Shown here: piece after piece, positions 21,174 through 31,925 of the stretch
Numbering within the stretch: position 1 is the first letter of the stretch
Layout of the letters: every line of letters begins with the position of its first letter
Virus record (IMG/VR): IMGVR_UViG_3300044645_001661
DNA length: 64,000 nt
Strand: one strand, 5' to 3'
DNA from: a virus
Taxonomy: Duplodnaviria; Caudoviricetes
Notes under the pieces: model-generated
Told to the model about the DNA's origin: nothing
Databases searched by the model: none
Seen by the model: the letters and a program-made list of their open reading frames with translations, nothing else
Made by a program: the position numbers and the translations under genes

Positions 21174-24100
21174 ATGGGTCTTAGTCGCTTAGATAATTTC
21201 TTAAAGAATAGTAGAGGTGATATTTTATATGTTGATCCCTCAAGTATAGATTCAACTGACAGTATTGAGAATCAAGGTAATTCTCTGGTCAGACCCTTTA
21301 AAACTATTCAAAGAGCCTTAATAGAAGCCGCAAGATTTTCTTATCAAAGAGGTCTGGATAATGATCGCTTTGGTAGAACAACAATTATCGTTTATCCTGG
21401 AGAACATTTAATTGATAATAGGCCAGGATGGATACCTATACATGATAATCCAGTAGCTGGTAATAATTGGTTAACCAGAGGTGGGGCAGTATCTAATGAA
21501 TTCCCAGAATTTAATTTAAATTCTAACTTTAATATTAATGATGATACTAATGATCTTTATAAAATGAATAGTGTATATGGGGGTATTATTATTCCTCGTG
21601 GTACATCTATTGTTGGTATGGATCTTAGAAAAACTAAAATCCGTGCTAAATTTATTCCCAATCCAGAAGATTCTACAATTGATAGAACATCAATTTTTAG
21701 AGTAACTGGATCTTGCTATTTTTATCAATTTACATTTTTTGATGCGGACCCAAATAGTGTTGTATTTAAAGATTATGGTCCTACTAAGTTTGTTCCAAAT
21801 TTCTCTCACCACAAACTTACGTGTTTTGAATATGCTGATGGTGTAAATCCAGTAATTATTGATGATGATTATATTACATATAAAACCACAAAGACTGATT
21901 TAGATTTATATTATGATAAAATAGCTCTTACATATGGATCTTCCAGTGGAAGATTGATAAGTCCAGATTTTCCAAATAGTGGAGTTGATGTTCAAACAAA
22001 AATTGATGAATATAGAATTGTTGGATCAAAAGGACAAAATGTTGGTATTACAAGTATTAAAGCTGGTGATGGTGTAGTATCTTCAACCACAATCACTGTT
22101 GATATCGAAGAATCAATCGGTGGATTGGATGTAGATACTCCAATTAGAATTGAGGGTGTTCCTACTGCTGGTTATAATGGTCAATATGTTGTAAGTACTT
22201 CGGAAAGTTCTACTAGAATTACTTATAAAACATCTTCTGCTCCTGCTAATCCTCTACCAACAATTGTTAGTGGAACTCCAACTCTTAATATTGTTGTAGA
22301 TACTGTTACCTCTGCATCTCCATATATCTTTAACTGTTCTCTTAGATCAGTATTTGGTATGTGTGGTCTTCATGCTGATGGTAATAAAGCCGATGGATTT
22401 AAGTCCATGGTTGTGGCACAATTTACAGGCATTGGTCTACAAAAAGATGATAATGCATTTTTAAAATATAATTCTACTTCTGGTGTATACGAAGATAAAA
22501 CAGCAGTATCGAATATTCATACAAATTCTTCTGCGGTATATAAACCAGAATATGAAAACTTCCACATTAAGGCATCCAACGATGCATTCTTACAGTTAGT
22601 TTCTGTATTTGCTATTGGATATGCAAATCACTTCTTAGCGGAAAGTGGTGGTGACCACTCTATTACAAACTCTAACTCAAACTTTGGTGCAAAATCTCTT
22701 GTCGCTAGGGGATTTAAAAAAGAAGCATTCCCAAGAGACGATACTGGATTTATAACACATATTATTCCTCCTCAAGAAATTCAGAGTGAAGATATTAACA
22801 TTGAATACACTTCTATTGACGTAGAAGCAACAGTAGGTATTGGAAGCACTACAAGATTATATCTTTACAACGAAACCGATTTAGCTAATCCCCCATTATC
22901 TGTTGTTGATGGATATAGAATTGGATCTAAAATAAATGATGAACTGAAAGTTCTTCTTAATATAAACGGACAATCTACAACAAAAACATCGAAAATTATA
23001 ATGCCAAATACCCAAGGAAGGGGTATTTATGAAAGTTCTTCTTATAAAGAAGCTATTGTTGGCCGAACAAATATTGGTATTAATAGTATTTCTTCTAATA
23101 CTTTTACTTTAACTGCACCCCACCAATTTATACAGGGTGAATCTTTAAGAGTTTATAGTAGTGATGGTGAACTTCCTGATGGATTAAATCATAACCAAGT
23201 TTATTATGCTATTACTGCGGGAATTAATTCCAATCAAGTTAAACTTGCACAAACTTTTAATGATACAATTACTGAAGATGCTGTAATTGTTAATAATAAG
23301 GGTGGTATTTTAACATTTGAAAGTAGAGTATCTGACAAAAAATCTGGAGATATTGGGCATCCAATTCAATTTGATAGTGGTAATGGGCAGTGGTATATTA
23401 CTGTCAGTGGAATATCTAGTTACAATCAAATATATTCTAGTGTTGTTGGTCTTGGAACTACGACTCTGGGAAGAACAACTCCAAGAACATTTATTACTAG
23501 AAAGTCTGATACTAGATCATTAACCGATAAGATTTATAAAGTTCGTTATGTAATACCAAAAGATTCTGCAGTTGTTGCAAGACCACCTAGAGATGGATTT
23601 GTAATTCAAGAATCTAATACTACTATTGGTGCAACACAAGAAGAAATTGGAAAATATAATAGTGTTGATGCTGTAATTTTAAATAATTCATCGGAATTAA
23701 GGAATTATAGATTTATATCTAATGCTATTTGGGATTCCGTTGGTATTGCAACTCTTACTACTGAAATTCCACATGAATTATCTGTGGGATCATTGATTCA
23801 GATCAATAATATTAAATCTGGATTTAATACTACTGGTATTGGTAATAGTGGATTTAATGGTGAATATTATGTAACTTCTAAACTTTCTAGAAGAGAATTC
23901 ACAATTGGATTAACTACAAATCCAGGATTATTCCAAAGTGATACCTCAACTAGAGATATAAATTTACCATATTATAAGAGAGTTAGATTCAATAATACTT
24001 TTGTAATATACAAATCAGAAGAAATTCAGCAGTATGTTCCAAATACCAAAGACGGTGTTTATCACTTAACTATTGTTGATTCTTCCAATTCTCCTTCTGT

Positions 24101-27002
24101 TGAACCATTTACTCAATTAAGGTTCTCACAACCAGTAAAAAATCTTTATCCACAATTAGATAGAGACAATATTAATTCTGATCCAGATCCAACAGTATCT
24201 TTTGCATTACCTTCTCCATTAGGATTAGTTGAAGTTAATAATCCTCAAAATTCTATTACTAGAGAAAGTATTGTAAGAAGCATTAATGATTTTGCTGTAG
24301 GTTTTGGATTAACAGATATTCAGTCTTCTTCTGGATTAGCACATACATTATACACTAGAATTGATCATGGATTGAATAGAATTACTAGAGTTGGTATTGT
24401 AAGTGCTGGTGAAAATTATGGATCTGGATCTGGATCTATTGAAACCCTTTATAATGCTAAATTAGTAGGATTTGCTGGATCTACAACTGGAAATTATGCC
24501 ACTGCAAATATTAAAGTTGATGCCTTAGGTAGAATAACAGATGTTAGAGTTATTGATGGTGGATCTGCTTATGGAATTGGCAATACTCTTTCTGTAGTTG
24601 GTGTAGGTACAACTTTAGGTCATATTGTTGGTGTAGTATCTGTAACTCAAATTAATAATGATATTGGTAATGTAATTTCTATAAGTGGTTTATACGATAA
24701 AGTTTTTGGGTCTTATAATAATCTTTATAGAATTACTGGAATTAATGTAGGACAGACCAATCAAATTCAAGTTGTATCTTCTTCTGAGGTAATAGCACAA
24801 TATCCATTTACTGGATCTACCCCTATTGCTGGAGTTAATACCAATGGATTGAGTAAAATTAATGCCACTCTTTTAAATACAGTTGAATCTTATGTTACTG
24901 GTAATTCTTTAGGGATTACATCATTTACATATAATAATGTAACTGGAATTGCAAGTGTTACAACACTTCAATCTCATGGATTTGTGAATGGTACTAAATT
25001 CAAAGTTGGTGGATTTAATCAAAGCGTTTATAATGGTAATTTCATTGCATCAAAAATTGTTGGATTAAATGATTTTGAATTTAATATTGGAATAGGTACG
25101 ACCTCACCAATATCTTCTGGAACTGCATACATTTATATACCAGGATTTGCCGCACAAGGTGGATTGCTGTCTGTAGATAATGAAGCAAATTCGAGTAGAC
25201 TTGTTGCTCAATATGCTGGAATTACAACTACTTTAGATGTTGCATTAGTAGATCCAACAATCAATACTCTTACAGTTACAAATGCATTAGATCGTAACTG
25301 GCAAGCTGGTGATTATATTATTGTTAATACCGAAATAATGCGTATTAGTGAAACTGTTGTAATTAATACTGCAATAGATGTATTCCGTGGATTATTTGGA
25401 ACTTCGAAGCAATCTCATCCAGCAGGATCTGTTGTTAAGAGAGTAAGATTTAAACCTATTGAATTTAGAAGAAACTCTATCTTACGTGCTTCTGGACATA
25501 CATTCGAATATCTTGGATATGGCCCAGGTAACTACTCCACAGCACTTCCTGAAAGACAAGATAGACAGTTTATTGATGTTGAAAGAGTCTTATCTCAATC
25601 TGTAAGTGATGACGGTGGAACTCCAATTTATAATGGATTAGATGATAATGGTAATACCTATACAGTTAATAAAGTAACAAACGCATCTACTGGTCAAGAC
25701 TTATTAACTAAAGCACCAATTCCAACTGTTAGAGGTGAAGACATTACCTCTAATACACAAGCAGTAGGTTTTGATGTAGATTCTACAGATGACCTGACAG
25801 TTGCTAGAGGATTAAAAGTTGAAGGTGGAACTGAGTCTACTATCATCTCAGAATTCAATGGACCAGTAATTTTTACTGAGAAAATAACATCAACTTCTGA
25901 AGATGGAATTTTAGCGTCTTCTTTATTCCTCCAAGGTGAATCTACAACTTCTAGAAAATATACTGTAGGAATTGCTACTCCAGGATTATCTGGAAATGCT
26001 GGAGATATTGTCTATAAAGCAGATCCTAATGGTGGAGTTGCTGTTGGTTGGGTTTATACATTAGAGAATTCCTGGCAAGAATTCGGTCCTATTAAATCTG
26101 TAGGAACAGAAAGATATTGTGGTATCTTTAGTGGTGCATTTGTTGGTGATGGATCTGGTCTCGATAATGTATCTGACGTTTGGGTATTTGATGGTATTGG
26201 TATCTCTACCACAAGAGCTGTTGGTATGGGAACAACTTCATCTGTTCCAAGTGTTGCACTATATGTTGGTGGTAATGCTATATTTGCTGGTGTTACTACA
26301 ATTAGAACAAACCAGTTAACTTTTGACGTTCCAAATGGATTCCTTGTTAATACTGGTATAACCACATTTAATCAGCAAGTTAATGTTAATACATTAAGAA
26401 CAATTGGTATTTCAACATTCCAAAATGATGTTATTATTACAACAAATCCAGCAACTACTGGTGATACTGCTGGTAATTTCCTAAGATTTGTTCAATCTGA
26501 TACATCAATTACTTCTGCCTACCAGTATGGTGGAATTAATTGGGAGGGTAATGATATTGGTAATAATGGTGTAAGAGGATATATTAGAGGTGTTGCTGAA
26601 GGTAGTACAGGACAATTTGCTATTACATTCGGAACACAACAATCTGGACCTTCTGCACCAATTGAGCAACTTAGAATTGCTTCTGATGGTAATATAACTG
26701 CTAGTGGTGAAATTACTGCACTATCTGATGAAAGATATAAAACAAACGTAAAAAATATTGATGATCCTCTTGCTAAAGTTCTACAACTTCGTGGTGTAGA
26801 ATATGATAGAATTGATAAAGAACAACATACTATTGGACTCATCGCTCAAGAAGTAGAAAAAGTCCTCCCAGAATTAGTTCATGAAAATCATGAGGGAGTA
26901 AAATCAGTTGCATATCAAAATATGGTTGCAATTCTGATTGAGGCGATTAAGGAACAACAAACACAAATTGAAGATCTGAAGAAGCGACTAGACAATCTAT
27001 AA
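21174..27002 (+). CDS. Large tail fibre/structural protein with C-terminal peptidase S74 intramolecular chaperone
   Basis: MGLSRLDNFLKN...RPFKTIQRALIEAARFSY N-terminus; SDERYKTNVKNI...GLIAQEVEKVLPELV...IEAIKEQQ at C-terminus (Ser codon 26724). Confidence 0.88.
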   Translation: MGLSRLDNFLKNSRGDILYVDPSSIDSTDSIENQGNSLVRPFKTIQRALIEAARFSYQRGLDNDRFGRTTIIVYPGEHLIDNRPGWIPIHDNPVAGNNWLTRGGAVSNEFPEFNLNSNFNINDDTNDLYKMNSVYGGIIIPRGTSIVGMDLRKTKIRAKFIPNPEDSTIDRTSIFRVTGSCYFYQFTFFDADPNSVVFKDYGPTKFVPNFSHHKLTCFEYADGVNPVIIDDDYITYKTTKTDLDLYYDKIALTYGSSSGRLISPDFPNSGVDVQTKIDEYRIVGSKGQNVGITSIKAGDGVVSSTTITVDIEESIGGLDVDTPIRIEGVPTAGYNGQYVVSTSESSTRITYKTSSAPANPLPTIVSGTPTLNIVVDTVTSASPYIFNCSLRSVFGMCGLHADGNKADGFKSMVVAQFTGIGLQKDDNAFLKYNSTSGVYEDKTAVSNIHTNSSAVYKPEYENFHIKASNDAFLQLVSVFAIGYANHFLAESGGDHSITNSNSNFGAKSLVARGFKKEAFPRDDTGFITHIIPPQEIQSEDINIEYTSIDVEATVGIGSTTRLYLYNETDLANPPLSVVDGYRIGSKINDELKVLLNINGQSTTKTSKIIMPNTQGRGIYESSSYKEAIVGRTNIGINSISSNTFTLTAPHQFIQGESLRVYSSDGELPDGLNHNQVYYAITAGINSNQVKLAQTFNDTITEDAVIVNNKGGILTFESRVSDKKSGDIGHPIQFDSGNGQWYITVSGISSYNQIYSSVVGLGTTTLGRTTPRTFITRKSDTRSLTDKIYKVRYVIPKDSAVVARPPRDGFVIQESNTTIGATQEEIGKYNSVDAVILNNSSELRNYRFISNAIWDSVGIATLTTEIPHELSVGSLIQINNIKSGFNTTGIGNSGFNGEYYVTSKLSRREFTIGLTTNPGLFQSDTSTRDINLPYYKRVRFNNTFVIYKSEEIQQYVPNTKDGVYHLTIVDSSNSPSVEPFTQLRFSQPVKNLYPQLDRDNINSDPDPTVSFALPSPLGLVEVNNPQNSITRESIVRSINDFAVGFGLTDIQSSSGLAHTLYTRIDHGLNRITRVGIVSAGENYGSGSGSIETLYNAKLVGFAGSTTGNYATANIKVDALGRITDVRVIDGGSAYGIGNTLSVVGVGTTLGHIVGVVSVTQINNDIGNVISISGLYDKVFGSYNNLYRITGINVGQTNQIQVVSSSEVIAQYPFTGSTPIAGVNTNGLSKINATLLNTVESYVTGNSLGITSFTYNNVTGIASVTTLQSHGFVNGTKFKVGGFNQSVYNGNFIASKIVGLNDFEFNIGIGTTSPISSGTAYIYIPGFAAQGGLLSVDNEANSSRLVAQYAGITTTLDVALVDPTINTLTVTNALDRNWQAGDYIIVNTEIMRISETVVINTAIDVFRGLFGTSKQSHPAGSVVKRVRFKPIEFRRNSILRASGHTFEYLGYGPGNYSTALPERQDRQFIDVERVLSQSVSDDGGTPIYNGLDDNGNTYTVNKVTNASTGQDLLTKAPIPTVRGEDITSNTQAVGFDVDSTDDLTVARGLKVEGGTESTIISEFNGPVIFTEKITSTSEDGILASSLFLQGESTTSRKYTVGIATPGLSGNAGDIVYKADPNGGVAVGWVYTLENSWQEFGPIKSVGTERYCGIFSGAFVGDGSGLDNVSDVWVFDGIGISTTRAVGMGTTSSVPSVALYVGGNAIFAGVTTIRTNQLTFDVPNGFLVNTGITTFNQQVNVNTLRTIGISTFQNDVIITTNPATTGDTAGNFLRFVQSDTSITSAYQYGGINWEGNDIGNNGVRGYIRGVAEGSTGQFAITFGTQQSGPSAPIEQLRIASDGNITASGEITALSDERYKTNVKNIDDPLAKVLQLRGVEYDRIDKEQHTIGLIAQEVEKVLPELVHENHEGVKSVAYQNMVAILIEAIKEQQTQIEDLKKRLDNL

Positions 27003-27008: not shown

Positions 27009-27034
27009 AGGGGGGTTGACAACCCCCCTTTTTT
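27009..27034 (+). terminator. Terminator hairpin with TTGACA across its loop
   Basis: AGGGGGGTT-GAC-AACCCCCCT then TTTTT. Confidence 0.8.
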
Positions 27035-27057
27035 ATGGTGTATAATAATGGAGTAGT

Positions 27058-30000
27058 TTGATTTTATTATCTGTGTCCCTGGTCAATATCTACGTTGATA
27101 GTCTTAAAAGCGGCGTAAATTCTTTCAACGTTGGTCAGACAATTTATACTTATGATCATCGTCATCGCAATAGTGACTATGGTAAAGCAAAGCAGACGCT
27201 TGCTCAAACAAAAGACCAGTACATTAATTACGCCTGGTGGACAAATGTATCTACTCGTGATGATGGTAAGGACGCTGGACACGATAAGATTATTCATTCT
27301 TGGTTGGATACTCTTCCTGGGATGAAAAGGATTGGTGCAAAAAATAGTGAGACTTTTGAATTTGATCCAAAATTTTATAATCTTGAGATCATCGTTCAAA
27401 TGATCTATGAGAAATTTTTCTCTGGTAAGGAAAAAGTATATACTGAATTTAAACCTCGCCCATATCAACAGAAGTTTTTGCAAAAAATTGCTTCTGCATG
27501 GAATGTTAGTGAAGAATTTTTGTTGTTTGCCAAGTGCCGTGCAGGTAAGTCTGCTATGGTTCTCAAGCATATTGTAGATAGTAATTATAAACTTTCTCTG
27601 GTTTGTTCTCGTCAAAGGTCACCAGAAGCTTCTTGGGAAAATGATTCTAACGAATTCTTTCCTACAATTAAATACATTTCTGTTCAAGATCCTTCTTGGG
27701 AAACGTATCTTGAATACTGGATGGAACGTGATGTAAATATTGTTCTATGGGGTACTGTACAGAGCTTTATTACACGTATTGATAGGATTCATAATATTGA
27801 TTTTGTTGCTTTTGATGAAGCACATATTGGTGGTACTGCTAAACAGTTCACCACTCTTCGCAACAAAATTAAAAGTCGTATCTGCTATATTTCTGGGACT
27901 GCTCATAAACTTTGCTGGATGTTCCCTGATGAACGCCAAAAGTTTGTGTATACTTATTTTGATGAACAATTTGATGTTCAAAATGGTGTTTTTAAGCGTC
28001 CTAAAATGAACATTGCTTTCGCAAAATACCAAACTTCTGCATATCAGGAAATTTTTGGTGATGATCCTGATGCTATGAAGAATATCTTCACAATGGAAGA
28101 TGATAAGTTTTTGTATGAGATTCTTGTTCGGGAATTTATTCACAAATACTTTGGTCCCCAACGAGAGATTCGCATTGGAGATCGTCTTTTAAGGGGTACA
28201 TATCACATGATGGCACTTCCTAGTGTCAAAGCATGTCATGCATTTCAAAAGTTGGTGCATTGTTATTATCCTTCCCTAGTTGTTACTTCAGATACTAATA
28301 AAGATCAAGATGATATTAACCGATTTCTTGAAGAAAATTCAAAAGCACTTATCATTACACAATCTGCAAACGTTCTTGGTGTAACTGCCAAAAAAATTGA
28401 TACCGTTATTAATTGTAAAGGTGGTGAATCTATTGAGTTTTGGACTCAATTTGCTTTCCGTGGTGGTTCTGGTGTTCATGATTGGTGGGTGATTGATTTT
28501 GATGCTCAGAGGTGTCTCCGTGCCATTCACACAGCATTCCAACTTGCATGTGATAATAATCCTGCACTATCTCAATATAGTGTAGTTGACTTTACCAATA
28601 TTCACGAATGGAATGATGGATTTAAAGAACTCAGTAAAGAACTTTTTGAAGATGCCCTCGCCGCTGATGTTGAGGGAAGCATCTCTACCATTACCAGTAT
28701 CGTAGAATCTCTGGACCTTAGTAAGATTAGCGATTTTAATCTAAAACTCAAAACCGATCTTTCCACGGTTATGAAAGAATCACAACTTAACGATGAGGGT
28801 GCCAACAACAAAAGTTGTATCGTTCGGGAGACTGAGCGTGTAAAAAAGTCTAATGACCTTGACACTTTGAAGAAGCAGACTGTCAAGGCACTTCTTGAGT
28901 CTATTCCTCTGACCATGTTCTACATCATTCGTAATGGTCAAAATGTATATTCAATCAATGATGTTATTGGTTCTGCAGTTTATCCTTCTGTTACTGGTGA
29001 CTGTGAGGGTATTCTTGATGATGTGATTAGTAAGAACCCTCATAGCATTGAACTTTTAACTCGTCGTATTGGTATTGTTTCTAATAGTATTCAAAAGAGT
29101 ATTAGGAATTCCGTTTCTCATACTATTAATGAGTTGTCTGTGTCTTCTCAAATTCAACAGTCTATTCCTGTCGAACTTTTTGATCTTATGATTGATAACT
29201 GCAATGATCTTTCTAACGTCTACATGTTTGGTGATCCTAGTGGATCTCACACTGCCCGTCTTTTAGAGCGACAAGTGGATCCAAATAACATTACCGTATG
29301 GGAGAGTTGCAATAGTCATCGTAATCGTGTAAAATATATCAATGATAGTATTAATATTGTTGACTCTCATCCAGATATGAAGTTTACCGCCATTTTAGCA
29401 AATCCTCCATATAACGATCCCACCAAAAAAGCAAAGAACAATAAACTTTGGCCTATTGTGGTTGAACAGCACCTTGAACTGGTTGCTCCTGGAGGAGACA
29501 TTTGTGAAGTTACTCCTTCATCTGTTCTTGGAACAACAGGTAAAGGTAAAAAGTTTATGAAGTTGTTCTCTACAAAGTATAATCTAAAAATGATTGATTA
29601 TACTGCAGATGATTACTTTACTGAGGGTGTTGCTATTTGTCGTTGGCATCTTACAAATGAACCTTATCAGGGTAAAACCACTGTCATTACTCATGATGGT
29701 TCCTTTACTTGGGATTTGCGAGATGGTCTTCCTCTTGTTGGAGATTCTGCTCTTAAGCATTCTATCCTTAATAAGATTGCTAACTCTAACCATCCACGTA
29801 TTCCTCTAAAGATGGGTCAAGCAATTGCTAAAGAAGATCATATTCCTGATGGCAAGTATGAGATCTACCACTCTTCTAAAAAAGTTAAACGCACCAATAT
29901 TGTTCCTACAACTGGAGATGTGCTAAAGTTTATTGTTCCATTCTCTTCTACGTATAAGAATGGTGGCATCTTTACCTCTAGCGGATTTGTGGGTATGTTT

Positions 30001-30228
30001 AATTGTTGGTGTCCAATTACTTCGGAAGAAGAAGGGGATCGTCTTAGTAAAATCTTTGACAATAAAATTATTCAGTTCTTTATTGATAATTACAAAAAGA
30101 CTGCTGGATTTACTCCCGCCATTAAAAATGGTGAAGTACCTGACATTACAGACTATGCTAATTTGTCTGATCAATTTGGTTTTACTGAAGAAGAAGTTGA
30201 GTATTTAAAGAAAAATAATGCCATCTAA
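27058..30228 (+). CDS. Nuclease-like N-terminus + SF2 (ResIII-type) helicase + N6-adenine MTase catalytic/TRD region
   Basis: AKCRAGKS (Walker A variant), DEAH, SGTA, ILANPPY; degenerate SAM motif MFGDPSGSH; start may be GTG 27073. Confidence 0.8.
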   Translation: MILLSVSLVNIYVDSLKSGVNSFNVGQTIYTYDHRHRNSDYGKAKQTLAQTKDQYINYAWWTNVSTRDDGKDAGHDKIIHSWLDTLPGMKRIGAKNSETFEFDPKFYNLEIIVQMIYEKFFSGKEKVYTEFKPRPYQQKFLQKIASAWNVSEEFLLFAKCRAGKSAMVLKHIVDSNYKLSLVCSRQRSPEASWENDSNEFFPTIKYISVQDPSWETYLEYWMERDVNIVLWGTVQSFITRIDRIHNIDFVAFDEAHIGGTAKQFTTLRNKIKSRICYISGTAHKLCWMFPDERQKFVYTYFDEQFDVQNGVFKRPKMNIAFAKYQTSAYQEIFGDDPDAMKNIFTMEDDKFLYEILVREFIHKYFGPQREIRIGDRLLRGTYHMMALPSVKACHAFQKLVHCYYPSLVVTSDTNKDQDDINRFLEENSKALIITQSANVLGVTAKKIDTVINCKGGESIEFWTQFAFRGGSGVHDWWVIDFDAQRCLRAIHTAFQLACDNNPALSQYSVVDFTNIHEWNDGFKELSKELFEDALAADVEGSISTITSIVESLDLSKISDFNLKLKTDLSTVMKESQLNDEGANNKSCIVRETERVKKSNDLDTLKKQTVKALLESIPLTMFYIIRNGQNVYSINDVIGSAVYPSVTGDCEGILDDVISKNPHSIELLTRRIGIVSNSIQKSIRNSVSHTINELSVSSQIQQSIPVELFDLMIDNCNDLSNVYMFGDPSGSHTARLLERQVDPNNITVWESCNSHRNRVKYINDSINIVDSHPDMKFTAILANPPYNDPTKKAKNNKLWPIVVEQHLELVAPGGDICEVTPSSVLGTTGKGKKFMKLFSTKYNLKMIDYTADDYFTEGVAICRWHLTNEPYQGKTTVITHDGSFTWDLRDGLPLVGDSALKHSILNKIANSNHPRIPLKMGQAIAKEDHIPDGKYEIYHSSKKVKRTNIVPTTGDVLKFIVPFSSTYKNGGIFTSSGFVGMFNCWCPITSEEEGDRLSKIFDNKIIQFFIDNYKKTAGFTPAIKNGEVPDITDYANLSDQFGFTEEEVEYLKKNNAI

Positions 30229-30634
30229 AAATAAACATAACAAAAAGCATGGATCTCAACTTGAGAGATCTGATGAGAGAATCAAACAGACGCAGGAGGT
30301 ATTTACTCCTCCTGCCCTAATTGATAAAATGATTTTGGATATTCCAGAAGAGGTTCTTAAAGATCCAAGTTCTAAATTTATTGATAACTGTGCTGGTGAC
30401 GGTAATTTTTTAGTTCAATTACTTAAAGCACTTAGACAATATCATACTGAACAGCATATTGTAGATAATATGTTATATGCTGTGGAGTTAATGGAAGATA
30501 ATCATAAAGAATTATGTAAAAGAATTGGGGTGTCCACCTCCCATCCTCACTATGTGTGCTATGATGCCCTGGAATATCATTACCGATTTGATGGTACGTT
30601 AGGACCAATTACCTTAGACCAATTTTTGAACTGA
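30218..30634 (+). CDS. Small MTase SAM-binding subunit (motifs X and I only)
   Basis: QEVFTP, FIDNCAGDGNF, LYAVELMEDN; no NPPY-type motif in 138 aa. Confidence 0.78.
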   Translation: MPSKNKHNKKHGSQLERSDERIKQTQEVFTPPALIDKMILDIPEEVLKDPSSKFIDNCAGDGNFLVQLLKALRQYHTEQHIVDNMLYAVELMEDNHKELCKRIGVSTSHPHYVCYDALEYHYRFDGTLGPITLDQFLN

Positions 30635-30635: not shown

Positions 30636-30695
30636 CACTCTGCTGCCCCAGGGCGGCATATTTTGCTGTATAATAACTTTATTGAGATTGAGACC

Positions 30696-31925
30696 ATGAT
30701 TCTTCGCCCCCACCAGCACGAAGCATTGCAGATCATGCTTAAGGAGCGTCTTGGCATCGTTGTATTCCCCACTGGTGGCGGCAAGAGTCTTGTTGCCATT
30801 ATGGATGCCAAGCGTCAATTTGACGAGGGTAATAAAACTATTGTTGTTGTTGCTCCTCGCCTCATGCTTGCTCGGCAATTGTCTTCCGAGTTTCTTGAGC
30901 ACATCACCAATGCTTCTGTGATGCATGTTCATTCTAAAAGTGATCTTCCCTACTTTACTACTACAGATCCTAATCAGATCTATGCTTGGAATTATCATAC
31001 TAATGGTAATAAATTGATTGTTACCACTTATCATTCTCTTCATCGTATTCAAGAGTCTGGTATTAAGGTTGATAGCATTTACTTTGATGAAGCACACAAC
31101 TCTACTAAAAGGAATTTCTTCGATTCCACTAAGTATTTTTCTGTTAATTCTGATCGCTGTTATTTCTTTACTGCTACTCCTAAGTATTCTGCTACTTCTT
31201 CCAAACCAGGTATGAATAATAGTGATGTTTATGGTCGGGTTATTTGCAATGTTCCTGCACCTGCACTGGTCAATAATGGATCATTGATTCCTCCTAAAAT
31301 TAATCCCATTAATATCGGTAGCATTCGTCTTAAGGGCGAAGAGGCGGCAGAACGCGATTGTATGACTTTGTTGGATACTATTTGTAATGAAGACCATATG
31401 GATAAAGTTTTGATTGCTGCTCCTAACACTAAGGTTATGGTCCGTATGCTTGCTGAGACTGATTTTATGAAAGAAGTGCGGTCTATGGGGTATGATCTCC
31501 TCTGGATTACCAGCAAACATGGTGCATTTTTGAATGATCAGAAAATCTCCCGTGAACAGTTTTTTCAATTGGTCAATCAGTTTGGTGCAGATCCTGACAA
31601 AAAATTTATCGTCATGCATTATTCTATTTTGAGTGAAGGTATCTCTGTTCCTGGTCTTACTTCTTTGATTATGATGCGTCAAATGAATGTTATTGAGATG
31701 TGCCAATCTGTTGGTCGTGTTTTGCGTCTTCATCTTGATGATGTCAAGCGTATTCAGAATGGTACACTTACTCCAGGCAAACTTAGCGACTACACCAAAT
31801 CATTCGGTCTAGTTCATGTTCCTGTTTACAGTAATGTTGGTATTGCTACTGTTAAGCGTCTCCAAAATATCGTAGATACGGTATTTGTACAAGGTCAACC
31901 TGCAATTTCTACTATTAAGCGATGA
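30696..31925 (+). CDS. DEAD/DEAH-box (ResIII-like) helicase
   Basis: LRPHQ, PTGGGKS, DEAH, TATP, ILSEGI, QSVGRVLR; start re-called to ATG 30696. Confidence 0.9.
   Translation: MILRPHQHEALQIMLKERLGIVVFPTGGGKSLVAIMDAKRQFDEGNKTIVVVAPRLMLARQLSSEFLEHITNASVMHVHSKSDLPYFTTTDPNQIYAWNYHTNGNKLIVTTYHSLHRIQESGIKVDSIYFDEAHNSTKRNFFDSTKYFSVNSDRCYFFTATPKYSATSSKPGMNNSDVYGRVICNVPAPALVNNGSLIPPKINPINIGSIRLKGEEAAERDCMTLLDTICNEDHMDKVLIAAPNTKVMVRMLAETDFMKEVRSMGYDLLWITSKHGAFLNDQKISREQFFQLVNQFGADPDKKFIVMHYSILSEGISVPGLTSLIMMRQMNVIEMCQSVGRVLRLHLDDVKRIQNGTLTPGKLSDYTKSFGLVHVPVYSNVGIATVKRLQNIVDTVFVQGQPAISTIKR

Follow-up and report, generated by a model that had tools for sequence, protein, structure and literature searches.

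A pair of overlapping genes at nt 27058-30634 of a 64,000-nucleotide (nt) stretch of viral DNA (IMG/VR record IMGVR_UViG_3300044645_001661; the whole stretch is called the window below) was analyzed as a putative DNA methyltransferase locus. The window is a low-GC region (~33%) of a T4-like cyanophage of the family Kyanoviridae. A megablast search of the phage collection found no DNA nearly identical to the locus; its relatives were reached at the protein level only, in Prochlorococcus phage P-SSM2 and many Synechococcus myoviruses of Kyanoviridae. We consider it rather probable that the two genes form an operon for a two-subunit N6-adenine DNA methyltransferase of the gamma lineage (CamA/TaqI/HsdM), with the genes for its halves in reversed order. 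Within the large protein, the last ~280 residues would supply the catalytic half (strand β4, NPPY, and motifs IV-VIII) and a target-recognition domain (TRD), and a 138-residue protein, made by stop/start coupling, would supply the canonical S-adenosylmethionine (SAM) half (motifs X, I, II, and III). In this phage, the catalytic half would be fused behind a T5orf172-like domain and a superfamily 2 (SF2) ResIII-like ATPase, giving a layout like that of Type ISP enzymes (nuclease-motor-methylase-TRD), and the large protein would keep an additional, divergent SAM half. This interpretation is supported by half-by-half homology, by the way both families map side by side on one solved enzyme, and by synteny that is nearly universal whichever half is taken as the starting point. 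Single-chain relatives also occur in either order, and every part is under purifying selection.

A previous, sequence-only reading of the window had described two overlapping open reading frames (ORFs) here. Both were found at the coordinates it gave, and all the motifs it quoted were located, including NPPY at residues 782-785 of the large ORF. The two ORFs and their parts, with lengths and positions in amino acids (aa) and model confidence as the predicted local distance difference test (pLDDT), are the following:

27058-30228, + strand: large ORF, 1056 aa; TTG start, 4 nt past GGAG; alternative start GTG at 27073
27058-27456, + strand: T5orf172/GIY-YIG-like fold, aa 1-133; AlphaFold2 model with pLDDT 81; matches in ESM Atlas and AFDB clusters
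27448-28557, + strand: SF2 (ResIII-like) ATPase, aa ~131-500; Walker A AKCRAGKS 158-165, DEAH 253-256, SGTA 279-282, QFAFRGGS 464-471
28558-29154, + strand: linker or coupler region, aa ~501-699; part of phrog_22930; no family assignment
29155-29382, + strand: the large ORF's own divergent SAM half; X' QQSIP, I' MFGDPSGSH, II' ITVWES, III' INIVDS
29383-30228, + strand: catalytic half (β4, NPPY at 29401-29412, motifs IV-VIII) and TRD-like tail; matched by Pfam Eco57I and N6_Mtase and by Foldseek
30218-30634, + strand: small ORF, 138 aa; ATG start; overlaps the end of the large ORF by 11 nt

The small ORF carries motif X as EVFTP (27-31), motif I as DNCAGDGNF (56-64), motif II as YAVELMEDN, and motif III as YVCYDALEY, with no motif IV; intact motifs X and I and a missing NPPY were what the sequence-only reading had claimed for it. 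In Pfam, it corresponded to positions 21-89 of the N6_Mtase profile (E 1e-3, slightly below the curated cut-off); it also matched the start of TIGR02987 and several Type II methyltransferase models, and in PHROGs it belonged to phrog_4376 (function unknown; E 3e-61). The profile of the small-ORF family aligned to CamA 21-160 (E 7e-12), ending at the residues right before β4, and also to M.BseCI and to residues 141-247 of the HsdM chain 2okc_A. Across the family alignment, F29, T30, P31, G60, and G62 were invariant or almost so, and E89 of the VEL sequence, at the acidic end of β2, was E or D in nearly all members. The canonical motif X (FTP), motif I (GxG), and acidic motif II are thereby all present in the small ORF, and the large ORF holds only a divergent version of them. 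An exhaustive search recovered 1106 representative proteins at E<=1e-3, of which the best 150 were mostly stand-alone proteins of 100-200 aa. By these motifs and alignments, the small ORF is identified as the SAM-binding half (motifs X, I, II, and III) of a CamA/HsdM-type adenine methyltransferase.

The large ORF, in which QQSIP lies at 700-704 and MFGDPSGSH at 723-731, matched Eco57I positions 51-170 of 171 (E 8e-7, above the cut-off) and N6_Mtase positions 109-234. Its PHROGs matches were phrog_22930 (unknown function) over aa 20-712 (E 5e-205) and phrog_3689, annotated as DNA methyltransferase, over aa 725-1046. NPPY was invariant in the family alignment, and the profile of the C-terminal family aligned to 2okc_A at 240-347, from β4 onward only. 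The small and large families therefore occupy abutting halves of this one solved HsdM chain, and the earlier claim that one methyltransferase domain is shared out over two ORFs agrees with both this mapping and the split of the Pfam profile. An AlphaFold2 model of the last 352 aa (pLDDT 77) was matched by Foldseek to CamA, M.TaqI, M.BseCI, and HsdM with the TRD included (E 1.6e-11 to 2e-8, probability 1.00, template-modeling (TM) score by query ~0.4, ~350 aligned columns). With respect to the gamma order X-I-II-III-IV-VIII-TRD, the canonical X-III segment is a separate protein encoded downstream, and the prediction for the large chain by itself shows the complete order, its X'-III' being divergent. 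Membership in the beta class was rejected, since the Pfam, NCBIfam, and PDB matches were all of gamma type (Eco57I, N6_Mtase, TIGR02987, and CamA) and no N6_N4_Mtase/PF01555 match was obtained.

Conservation of the gene pair and forms of its relatives

The pair was compared across 80 viral-contig loci with small-ORF homologues (55-89% identity) and the annotated records L001-L003, 78 loci having enough upstream sequence. A motif of the form (N/D/S)PP(Y/F/W/H) was present in the ORF directly 5' of the small gene in 64 of the 78, and GNFPYG in two more. When the search was reversed and started from the catalytic half, the small ORF lay directly 3' in 34 of 35 loci; the 35th ends at a contig edge, so that all 34 assessable loci have the small gene. 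The co-occurrence that the sequence-only reading had proposed to check was thus found in both directions. The DPPY of the 1050-aa ORFs in L037 and L041 belongs to a structural protein and was taken for a chance occurrence. Most junctions have a stop/start overlap of 4-23 nt, most often 11 or 14 nt, with unrelated junction sequences and an ATG of its own for every small ORF, an arrangement that fits translational coupling of the pair. In ACG-2014f and in L033/L039, the partner genes stand at a distance of one or two genes. Pairwise ratios of nonsynonymous to synonymous substitution rates (dN/dS) with eight relatives, which are rough because dS is near saturation, were ~0.08-0.11 for the small ORF and 0.06-0.2 for the catalytic half.

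An overlapping pair was also found in Klebsiella Jiaodavirus PKO111 (L003; gp114 at 2515-4002, gp115 at 3989-4450), where NPPF stands at residue 239 of gp114, a protein with a GIY-YIG domain, and the 153 aa of gp115 make up a small half; by this homology, the split pair occurs in enterobacterial T4-like phages as well. In current annotation, gp114, whose GIY-YIG domain is of the LEM-3 type and is joined to the catalytic half of a methyltransferase, belongs to a homing endonuclease PHROG, and gp115 carries the label DNA methyltransferase but is the SAM half only.

Four types of partner gene could be told apart by the position of NPPY. In the first, it stands at residue 9-10 with no SAM half before it, as in the P-SSM2 036 type (191-194 aa, NPPY at residue 9) and in the L023 type (282 aa). 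In the second, it stands at residue 65-71 after a short SAM half; in the third, at 236-267 after a T5orf172-like domain; and in the fourth, the type of the window, at 773-857 with an SF2 ATPase also present. The L023-type partner is 56% identical to the window's catalytic half, has NPPY at residue 10, and shares the tail-fibre/helicase context; a 1942-aa tail-fibre gene likewise precedes the split pair in L023. Profile-profile comparison (hhalign) showed the short P-SSM2-type family to be homologous to that of the window (97.6%, E 4e-12). Because their upstream gene lacks any SAM half, the methyltransferase of the P-SSM2-type and L023-type phages appears possible only as a heteromer, and the split would be obligatory there. 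Among the relatives, the large ORF's own SAM half has been lost repeatedly and the small gene never. Of the two marks of a split enzyme, co-occurrence of the parts was found, and neither half being complete holds for the P-SSM2/L023 types and not clearly for the window's large ORF. The proposal that the two polypeptides complement each other in trans is accordingly compelling for relatives of the P-SSM2/L023 type, which have no SAM half in the large ORF, whereas for the phage of the window we infer it.

Among unsplit relatives, both orders occur. The normal one is seen in P0047, where GNPPF follows directly on the small-like half. In P0044 and P0100, the chain opens with GNPPY/F and closes with a homologue of the small ORF (42% and 36% identity, respectively); from this order, both read as true circular permutants in a single chain, and each was recovered from phage-like contigs of two samples. 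For P0044 as for P0047, both halves align to the halves in the window. P0173, a metagenomic protein of 444 aa, has two tandem small-ORF-like SAM halves (each with TP and GxG) followed by one GNPPY catalytic half, and its domain order identifies it as a fused counterpart of the window's arrangement of two SAM halves and one catalytic half.

Additional breaks and other partners were also seen. In L016-L022, the large gene is broken into two ORFs within the linker after the SF2 domain (for example, 4863-6659 and 6605-8011 in L017). In L040 (2561-4687/4684-5652) and L048 (4883-7003/7000-7995), it is cut exactly between motifs X' and I', which makes these a three-gene version of the enzyme. Just 5' of the large gene, L017 (3242-4792) and L020 (3247-4797) have a 516-aa ORF for a membrane protein (MPWLSLAILFP...) that by eye looks like a host-derived protein of the NdhD/NuoM type. 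In the GC-rich metagenomic proteins P0051 and P0127, a small-ORF-like SAM half forms the C-terminus, and the N-terminal ~210-240 aa have an LWWxAP... motif and neither NPPY nor a family match; these N-terminal parts may be a different partner domain for the SAM half.

The SAM half of the large ORF and the rival explanations

Several results weigh against the two-subunit interpretation in this phage. AlphaFold2 predicted the methyltransferase domain of the large ORF as a complete Rossmann fold, with the ORF's own β1-β3 (~700-775) packed on β4 at pLDDT 86-96. This segment keeps GDPxGxH, VWE (with an acidic residue past β2), and VxD in relatives of ~40% identity (L083, L040, and L048), and its pairwise dN/dS with the same eight relatives, subject to the same saturation of dS, was 0.06-0.19, a range shared with the catalytic half and the small ORF and indicating purifying selection. 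The model leaves the small subunit without a free canonical docking site in this phage, and the large protein alone might methylate. On the nuclease side, the N-terminal domain gave no PF10544 or PF01541 sequence match in Pfam, either in the window or in 12 cyanophage-type members, and hhalign of its family against the LEM-3 GIY-YIG domain of the Klebsiella phage was negative. The ETP, EPACAHG, VEID, and ADF motifs of M.TaqI resemble the SIP, GDPSGSH, VWE, and VxD of the large ORF. The sequence-only reading had called the SAM-binding motifs of the large ORF degenerate and had held that it misses motifs X and I. The quoted sequences are present, but degenerate overstates the case for a conserved, well-folding, TaqI-like segment, and the second statement is not supported in that form, as X'-I'-II'-III' are predicted to complete the fold. 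This SAM half had no match in Pfam or PDB profile searches. BLASTP detected no similarity between it and the small ORF, and the two are therefore not recent duplicates.

These observations give weight to an explanation in which the large ORF is a self-sufficient gamma-class methyltransferase using its own SAM half, and the small protein is an accessory SAM-binding subunit acting as an activator, a SAM sensor, or a switch for the motor or nuclease. DNMT3L and METTL14, which help a catalytic partner, offer an analogy. The complete fold predicted with high confidence, the conserved TaqI-like motifs under purifying selection, and the recurrence of the 2:1 arrangement in P0173 all speak for it. Nevertheless, it is the large ORF's SAM half, and never the small gene, that has been lost; between lineages that possess that half and lineages that do not, the small protein is still 58-68% identical, an argument for a core role common to both; and the half in question was missed by the profile searches. 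We therefore regard a self-sufficient large ORF as a real but distinctly less probable alternative, and rank above it, as fairly likely, the view that the small subunit supplies the working SAM site. A complex prediction for the C-terminal 352 aa of the large ORF and the small ORF, each entered as an alignment, returned a score of 0.00, which is no answer and evidence neither way.

The remaining rivals concern the nature of the small ORF and the substrate. With no motif IV, its 138 aa cannot be a methyltransferase alone, and it might be taken for a functionless, decaying fragment or an over-called ORF; the 1106 representatives, mostly of 100-200 aa, the phrog_4376 family, the invariant motifs, a dN/dS of ~0.1, and a position and stop/start overlap fixed in cyanophage, Klebsiella phage, and other loci leave this scarcely credible. 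A small ORF that is decayed and not conserved beside homologues had been named by the sequence-only reading as grounds for abandoning its proposal, and the conservation and dN/dS contradict it. Programmed frameshifting could join the overlapping ORFs into one circularly permuted chain with no separate small subunit, and permuted single-chain relatives do exist, but the 4-23 nt overlaps have unrelated sequences with no conserved slippery site, and each small ORF has its own ATG; such joining is very improbable. The decayed-fragment explanation was thus rejected by dN/dS, and the frameshift explanation by the comparison of junctions. NPPY occurs also in HemK/PrmC and in rRNA methyltransferases, and some relatives gave weak MTS (PF05175) matches, as would suit a module that methylates RNA, protein glutamine, or a nucleotide precursor rather than DNA adenine. 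Against such a target, which we consider unlikely, stand the best structural matches, DNA adenine methyltransferases with the TRD aligned over ~350 columns; the best sequence matches, Eco57I, N6_Mtase, CamA, BseCI, and HsdM; and the fusion to an SF2 motor and a nuclease-like domain, which fits DNA.

Under the favored two-subunit interpretation, the two proteins would bind each other, the pocket of the small subunit would deliver SAM to the NPPY site, the substrate would be a DNA adenine, and the N-terminal domain would cut DNA. The enzyme would serve to mark the DNA of the phage and might, in addition, take part in an attack on host or rival DNA that lacks the mark. A more speculative version, to which we attach a low probability, sees the enzyme as a machine of three parts, in which two SAM halves serve a single catalytic half. 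The TaqI-like half of the large protein and the separate CamA-like half would compete for the NPPY half or alternate on it, and SAM occupancy of the small subunit would switch a GIY-YIG-armed, Type ISP-like translocating nuclease between methylation of phage DNA and cutting of unmarked host or rival DNA. The locus would then be a living intermediate of a duplication-and-truncation route to permutation, and, as part of the same tentative proposal, the relatives would show all of its stages: the full gamma order, an extra half, loss of the first half, and a re-fused, permuted chain.

N-terminal modules and flanking signals

In the N-terminal domain, the motifs NIYVDS (10-15), FNVGQT (23-28), DKIIH (76-80), and SETFEF (97-102) were located. 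Structural comparison of its model with T5orf172/MUG113 clusters of the ESM Atlas gave TM scores of 0.57-0.67 with root-mean-square deviations of 2.6-3.5 Å over 98-110 residues, many of the matched clusters being fusions with ResIII helicases, and the AFDB cluster matches were mostly T5orf172/GIY-YIG entries (E 1e-3 to 3e-2). The family conserves Y12, G26, T28, R35, D40, Y41, D76, and E98, among which Y12, G26, R35, and E98 are spaced like GIY..YIG..R..E. Against the PDB, Foldseek returned nothing at E<=1e-3, and VIA-align gave only rows with Z<5, the GIY-YIG nucleases HIGLE and Slx1 being among tied rows at Z 4.0-4.4, below the noise level. The proposed GIY-YIG/T5orf172-like N-terminus is therefore supported as a fold by the ESM Atlas and AFDB, and lacks the corresponding sequence match in Pfam and hhalign. 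A Pfam search of the large ORF for an Mrr or PD-(D/E)xK nuclease gave no match. The SF2 helicase described by the sequence-only reading was recovered with its AKCRAGKS, DEAH, and SGTA motifs; the region matched phrog_16 (DNA helicase; E 1.3e-15) and, below the cut-off, Pfam ResIII at aa 131-275 (E 0.009), and phmmer found no relative in the PDB. For the N-terminal domain and the SF2 region together, Pfam, NCBIfam, and PADLOC assigned nothing beyond weak ResIII and PbeA matches.

The pair is bounded by the following neighboring genes and signals:

21174-27002: tail-fibre-like gene upstream of the pair, 1942 aa; Peptidase_S74 at the C-terminus
27009-27029, + strand: terminator-like hairpin and T-run (9-bp stem, 6 GC pairs, TTTTT tail), 3' of the tail-fibre-like gene
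27039-27048, + strand: TGTATAATAA box, extended -10-like; the identical 10-mer recurs at 30667-30676
30641-30676, + strand: second hairpin (30641-30658), T-rich tail, and second TGTATAATAA box (30667-30676)
30696-31925, + strand: SF2 helicase downstream of the pair, 409 aa from ATG 30696; Pfam ResIII (2.8e-18), DEAD, and Helicase_C

The flanking operator/promoter copies reported by the sequence-only reading do exist: 27009-27048 and 30641-30676 each contain a hairpin rich in G+C, a T-run, and the same TGTATAATAA box. Taken alone, the 10-mer has 3 copies in the window, a number reached in 6 of 100 shuffles. A TTGACA at 27017-27022 lies 19 nt 5' of the first box, outside the spacing of 16-18 nt used by the scanner. 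The first box is probably the early promoter of the two-gene operon, and early expression would start from the TGTATAAT promoter. Both hairpin/box units may act as terminator/early-promoter units, the one at 30641-30676 presumably marking the end of the operon and the start of the next transcription unit.

The upstream tail-fibre-like protein has a Peptidase_S74 intramolecular chaperone domain at aa 1851-1903. On the other side, a homologue of the helicase adjoins the small gene in most loci and is the usual downstream neighbor of the pair; the helicase had weak PDB matches to XPB and UvsW. Its listed TTG start at 30663 falls within the TGTATAATAA promoter-like box, and because relatives begin at M(Q/I)LRPHQ, ATG 30696 is probably the true start.

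Comparison with known systems and significance

Like CamA, M.TaqI, M.BseCI, and HsdM, the enzyme has an NPPY loop, a Rossmann core, and a C-terminal recognition domain, and its small and large ORFs align to the X-III and IV-VIII regions of these proteins, respectively. Those enzymes are single chains ordered X-I-II-III-IV...TRD, whereas here the canonical X-III is a separate protein encoded after IV...TRD, and the large chain, unlike theirs, holds a second, divergent X'-III' half. Beta-class amino-methyltransferases have the motif order IV-VIII-TRD-X-I-III. The gene order of the pair reproduces it, with P0044 and P0100 as permuted single chains, but the halves are of the gamma lineage by sequence and fold. 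Circularly permuted M.EcoKI-like DNA adenine methyltransferases are on record as single proteins of jumbo phages (PMC7824862, section 3.4.7); here, the permuted enzyme is cut into two polypeptides, an arrangement not described there.

Natural splits are known for other methyltransferases, M.EcoHK31I among them. M.AquI, as cited in PMC5944983 (refs 45-46), is a naturally split, active methyltransferase of alpha and beta subunits. The pair resembles it in that a methyltransferase would be assembled from two separately encoded polypeptides, and differs as a putative adenine-N6 enzyme in which the cut falls inside the Rossmann sheet, separating motif III from motif IV, and the halves are reversed.

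The Type ISP enzymes LlaGI and LlaBIII combine a nuclease, an SF2 helicase-like ATPase, an adenine methyltransferase, and a TRD in one chain (PMC3553950). The long chain of the window has a nuclease-like domain, an SF2 ATPase, a methylase, and a TRD in the same order. It differs from them in having a T5orf172/GIY-YIG-like fold instead of Mrr/PD-(D/E)xK and a conserved, translationally coupled extra small subunit (34/34 assessable loci), and in being encoded by a lytic phage, whereas LlaGI and LlaBIII are encoded by a host plasmid or chromosome. The likeness to Type ISP enzymes drawn by the sequence-only reading therefore stands for the nuclease-like/SF2/methyltransferase-TRD layout and fails for the Mrr-type nuclease and the single polypeptide. 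Bacterial T5orf172-ResIII helicase proteins in the ESM Atlas likewise have a T5orf172-like fold directly before a ResIII-type SF2 ATPase; a C-terminal methyltransferase-TRD is not reported for these clusters, and the N-terminal domain of the window is too divergent for detection by PF10544.

In the literature searched, we found neither an account of an adenine methyltransferase divided between motifs III and IV and having reversed halves, as a two-gene form in phages, nor one of a split adenine methyltransferase fused to a T5orf172-SF2 module, an absence that does not prove novelty. The two-gene, reverse-order layout is thus conserved in many phages and apparently undescribed. The analysis gives a probable function to a gene pair that is widespread in phages and listed as hypothetical, examples being P-SSM2 036/037, ACG-2014f gp051/053, those of S-SKS1 and S-CAM7, and gp114/115 of the Klebsiella Jiaodavirus, and a related stretch is present in unannotated Lak megaphage records. 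Annotation pipelines miss the pair because each half alone falls below family thresholds, and the methylation capacity of phages is therefore under-counted. The pair is also a natural example of a Rossmann-fold enzyme whose central sheet is divided between motifs III and IV and whose halves stand in reversed order, and its unsplit, permuted-fused, and double-half relatives provide a ready series for testing the origin of circular permutation in methyltransferases. For the biology of the cyanophages, the layout of the locus suggests that lytic members carry Type ISP-like enzymes of their own, which bears on the disposal of host DNA or the exclusion of competitors.

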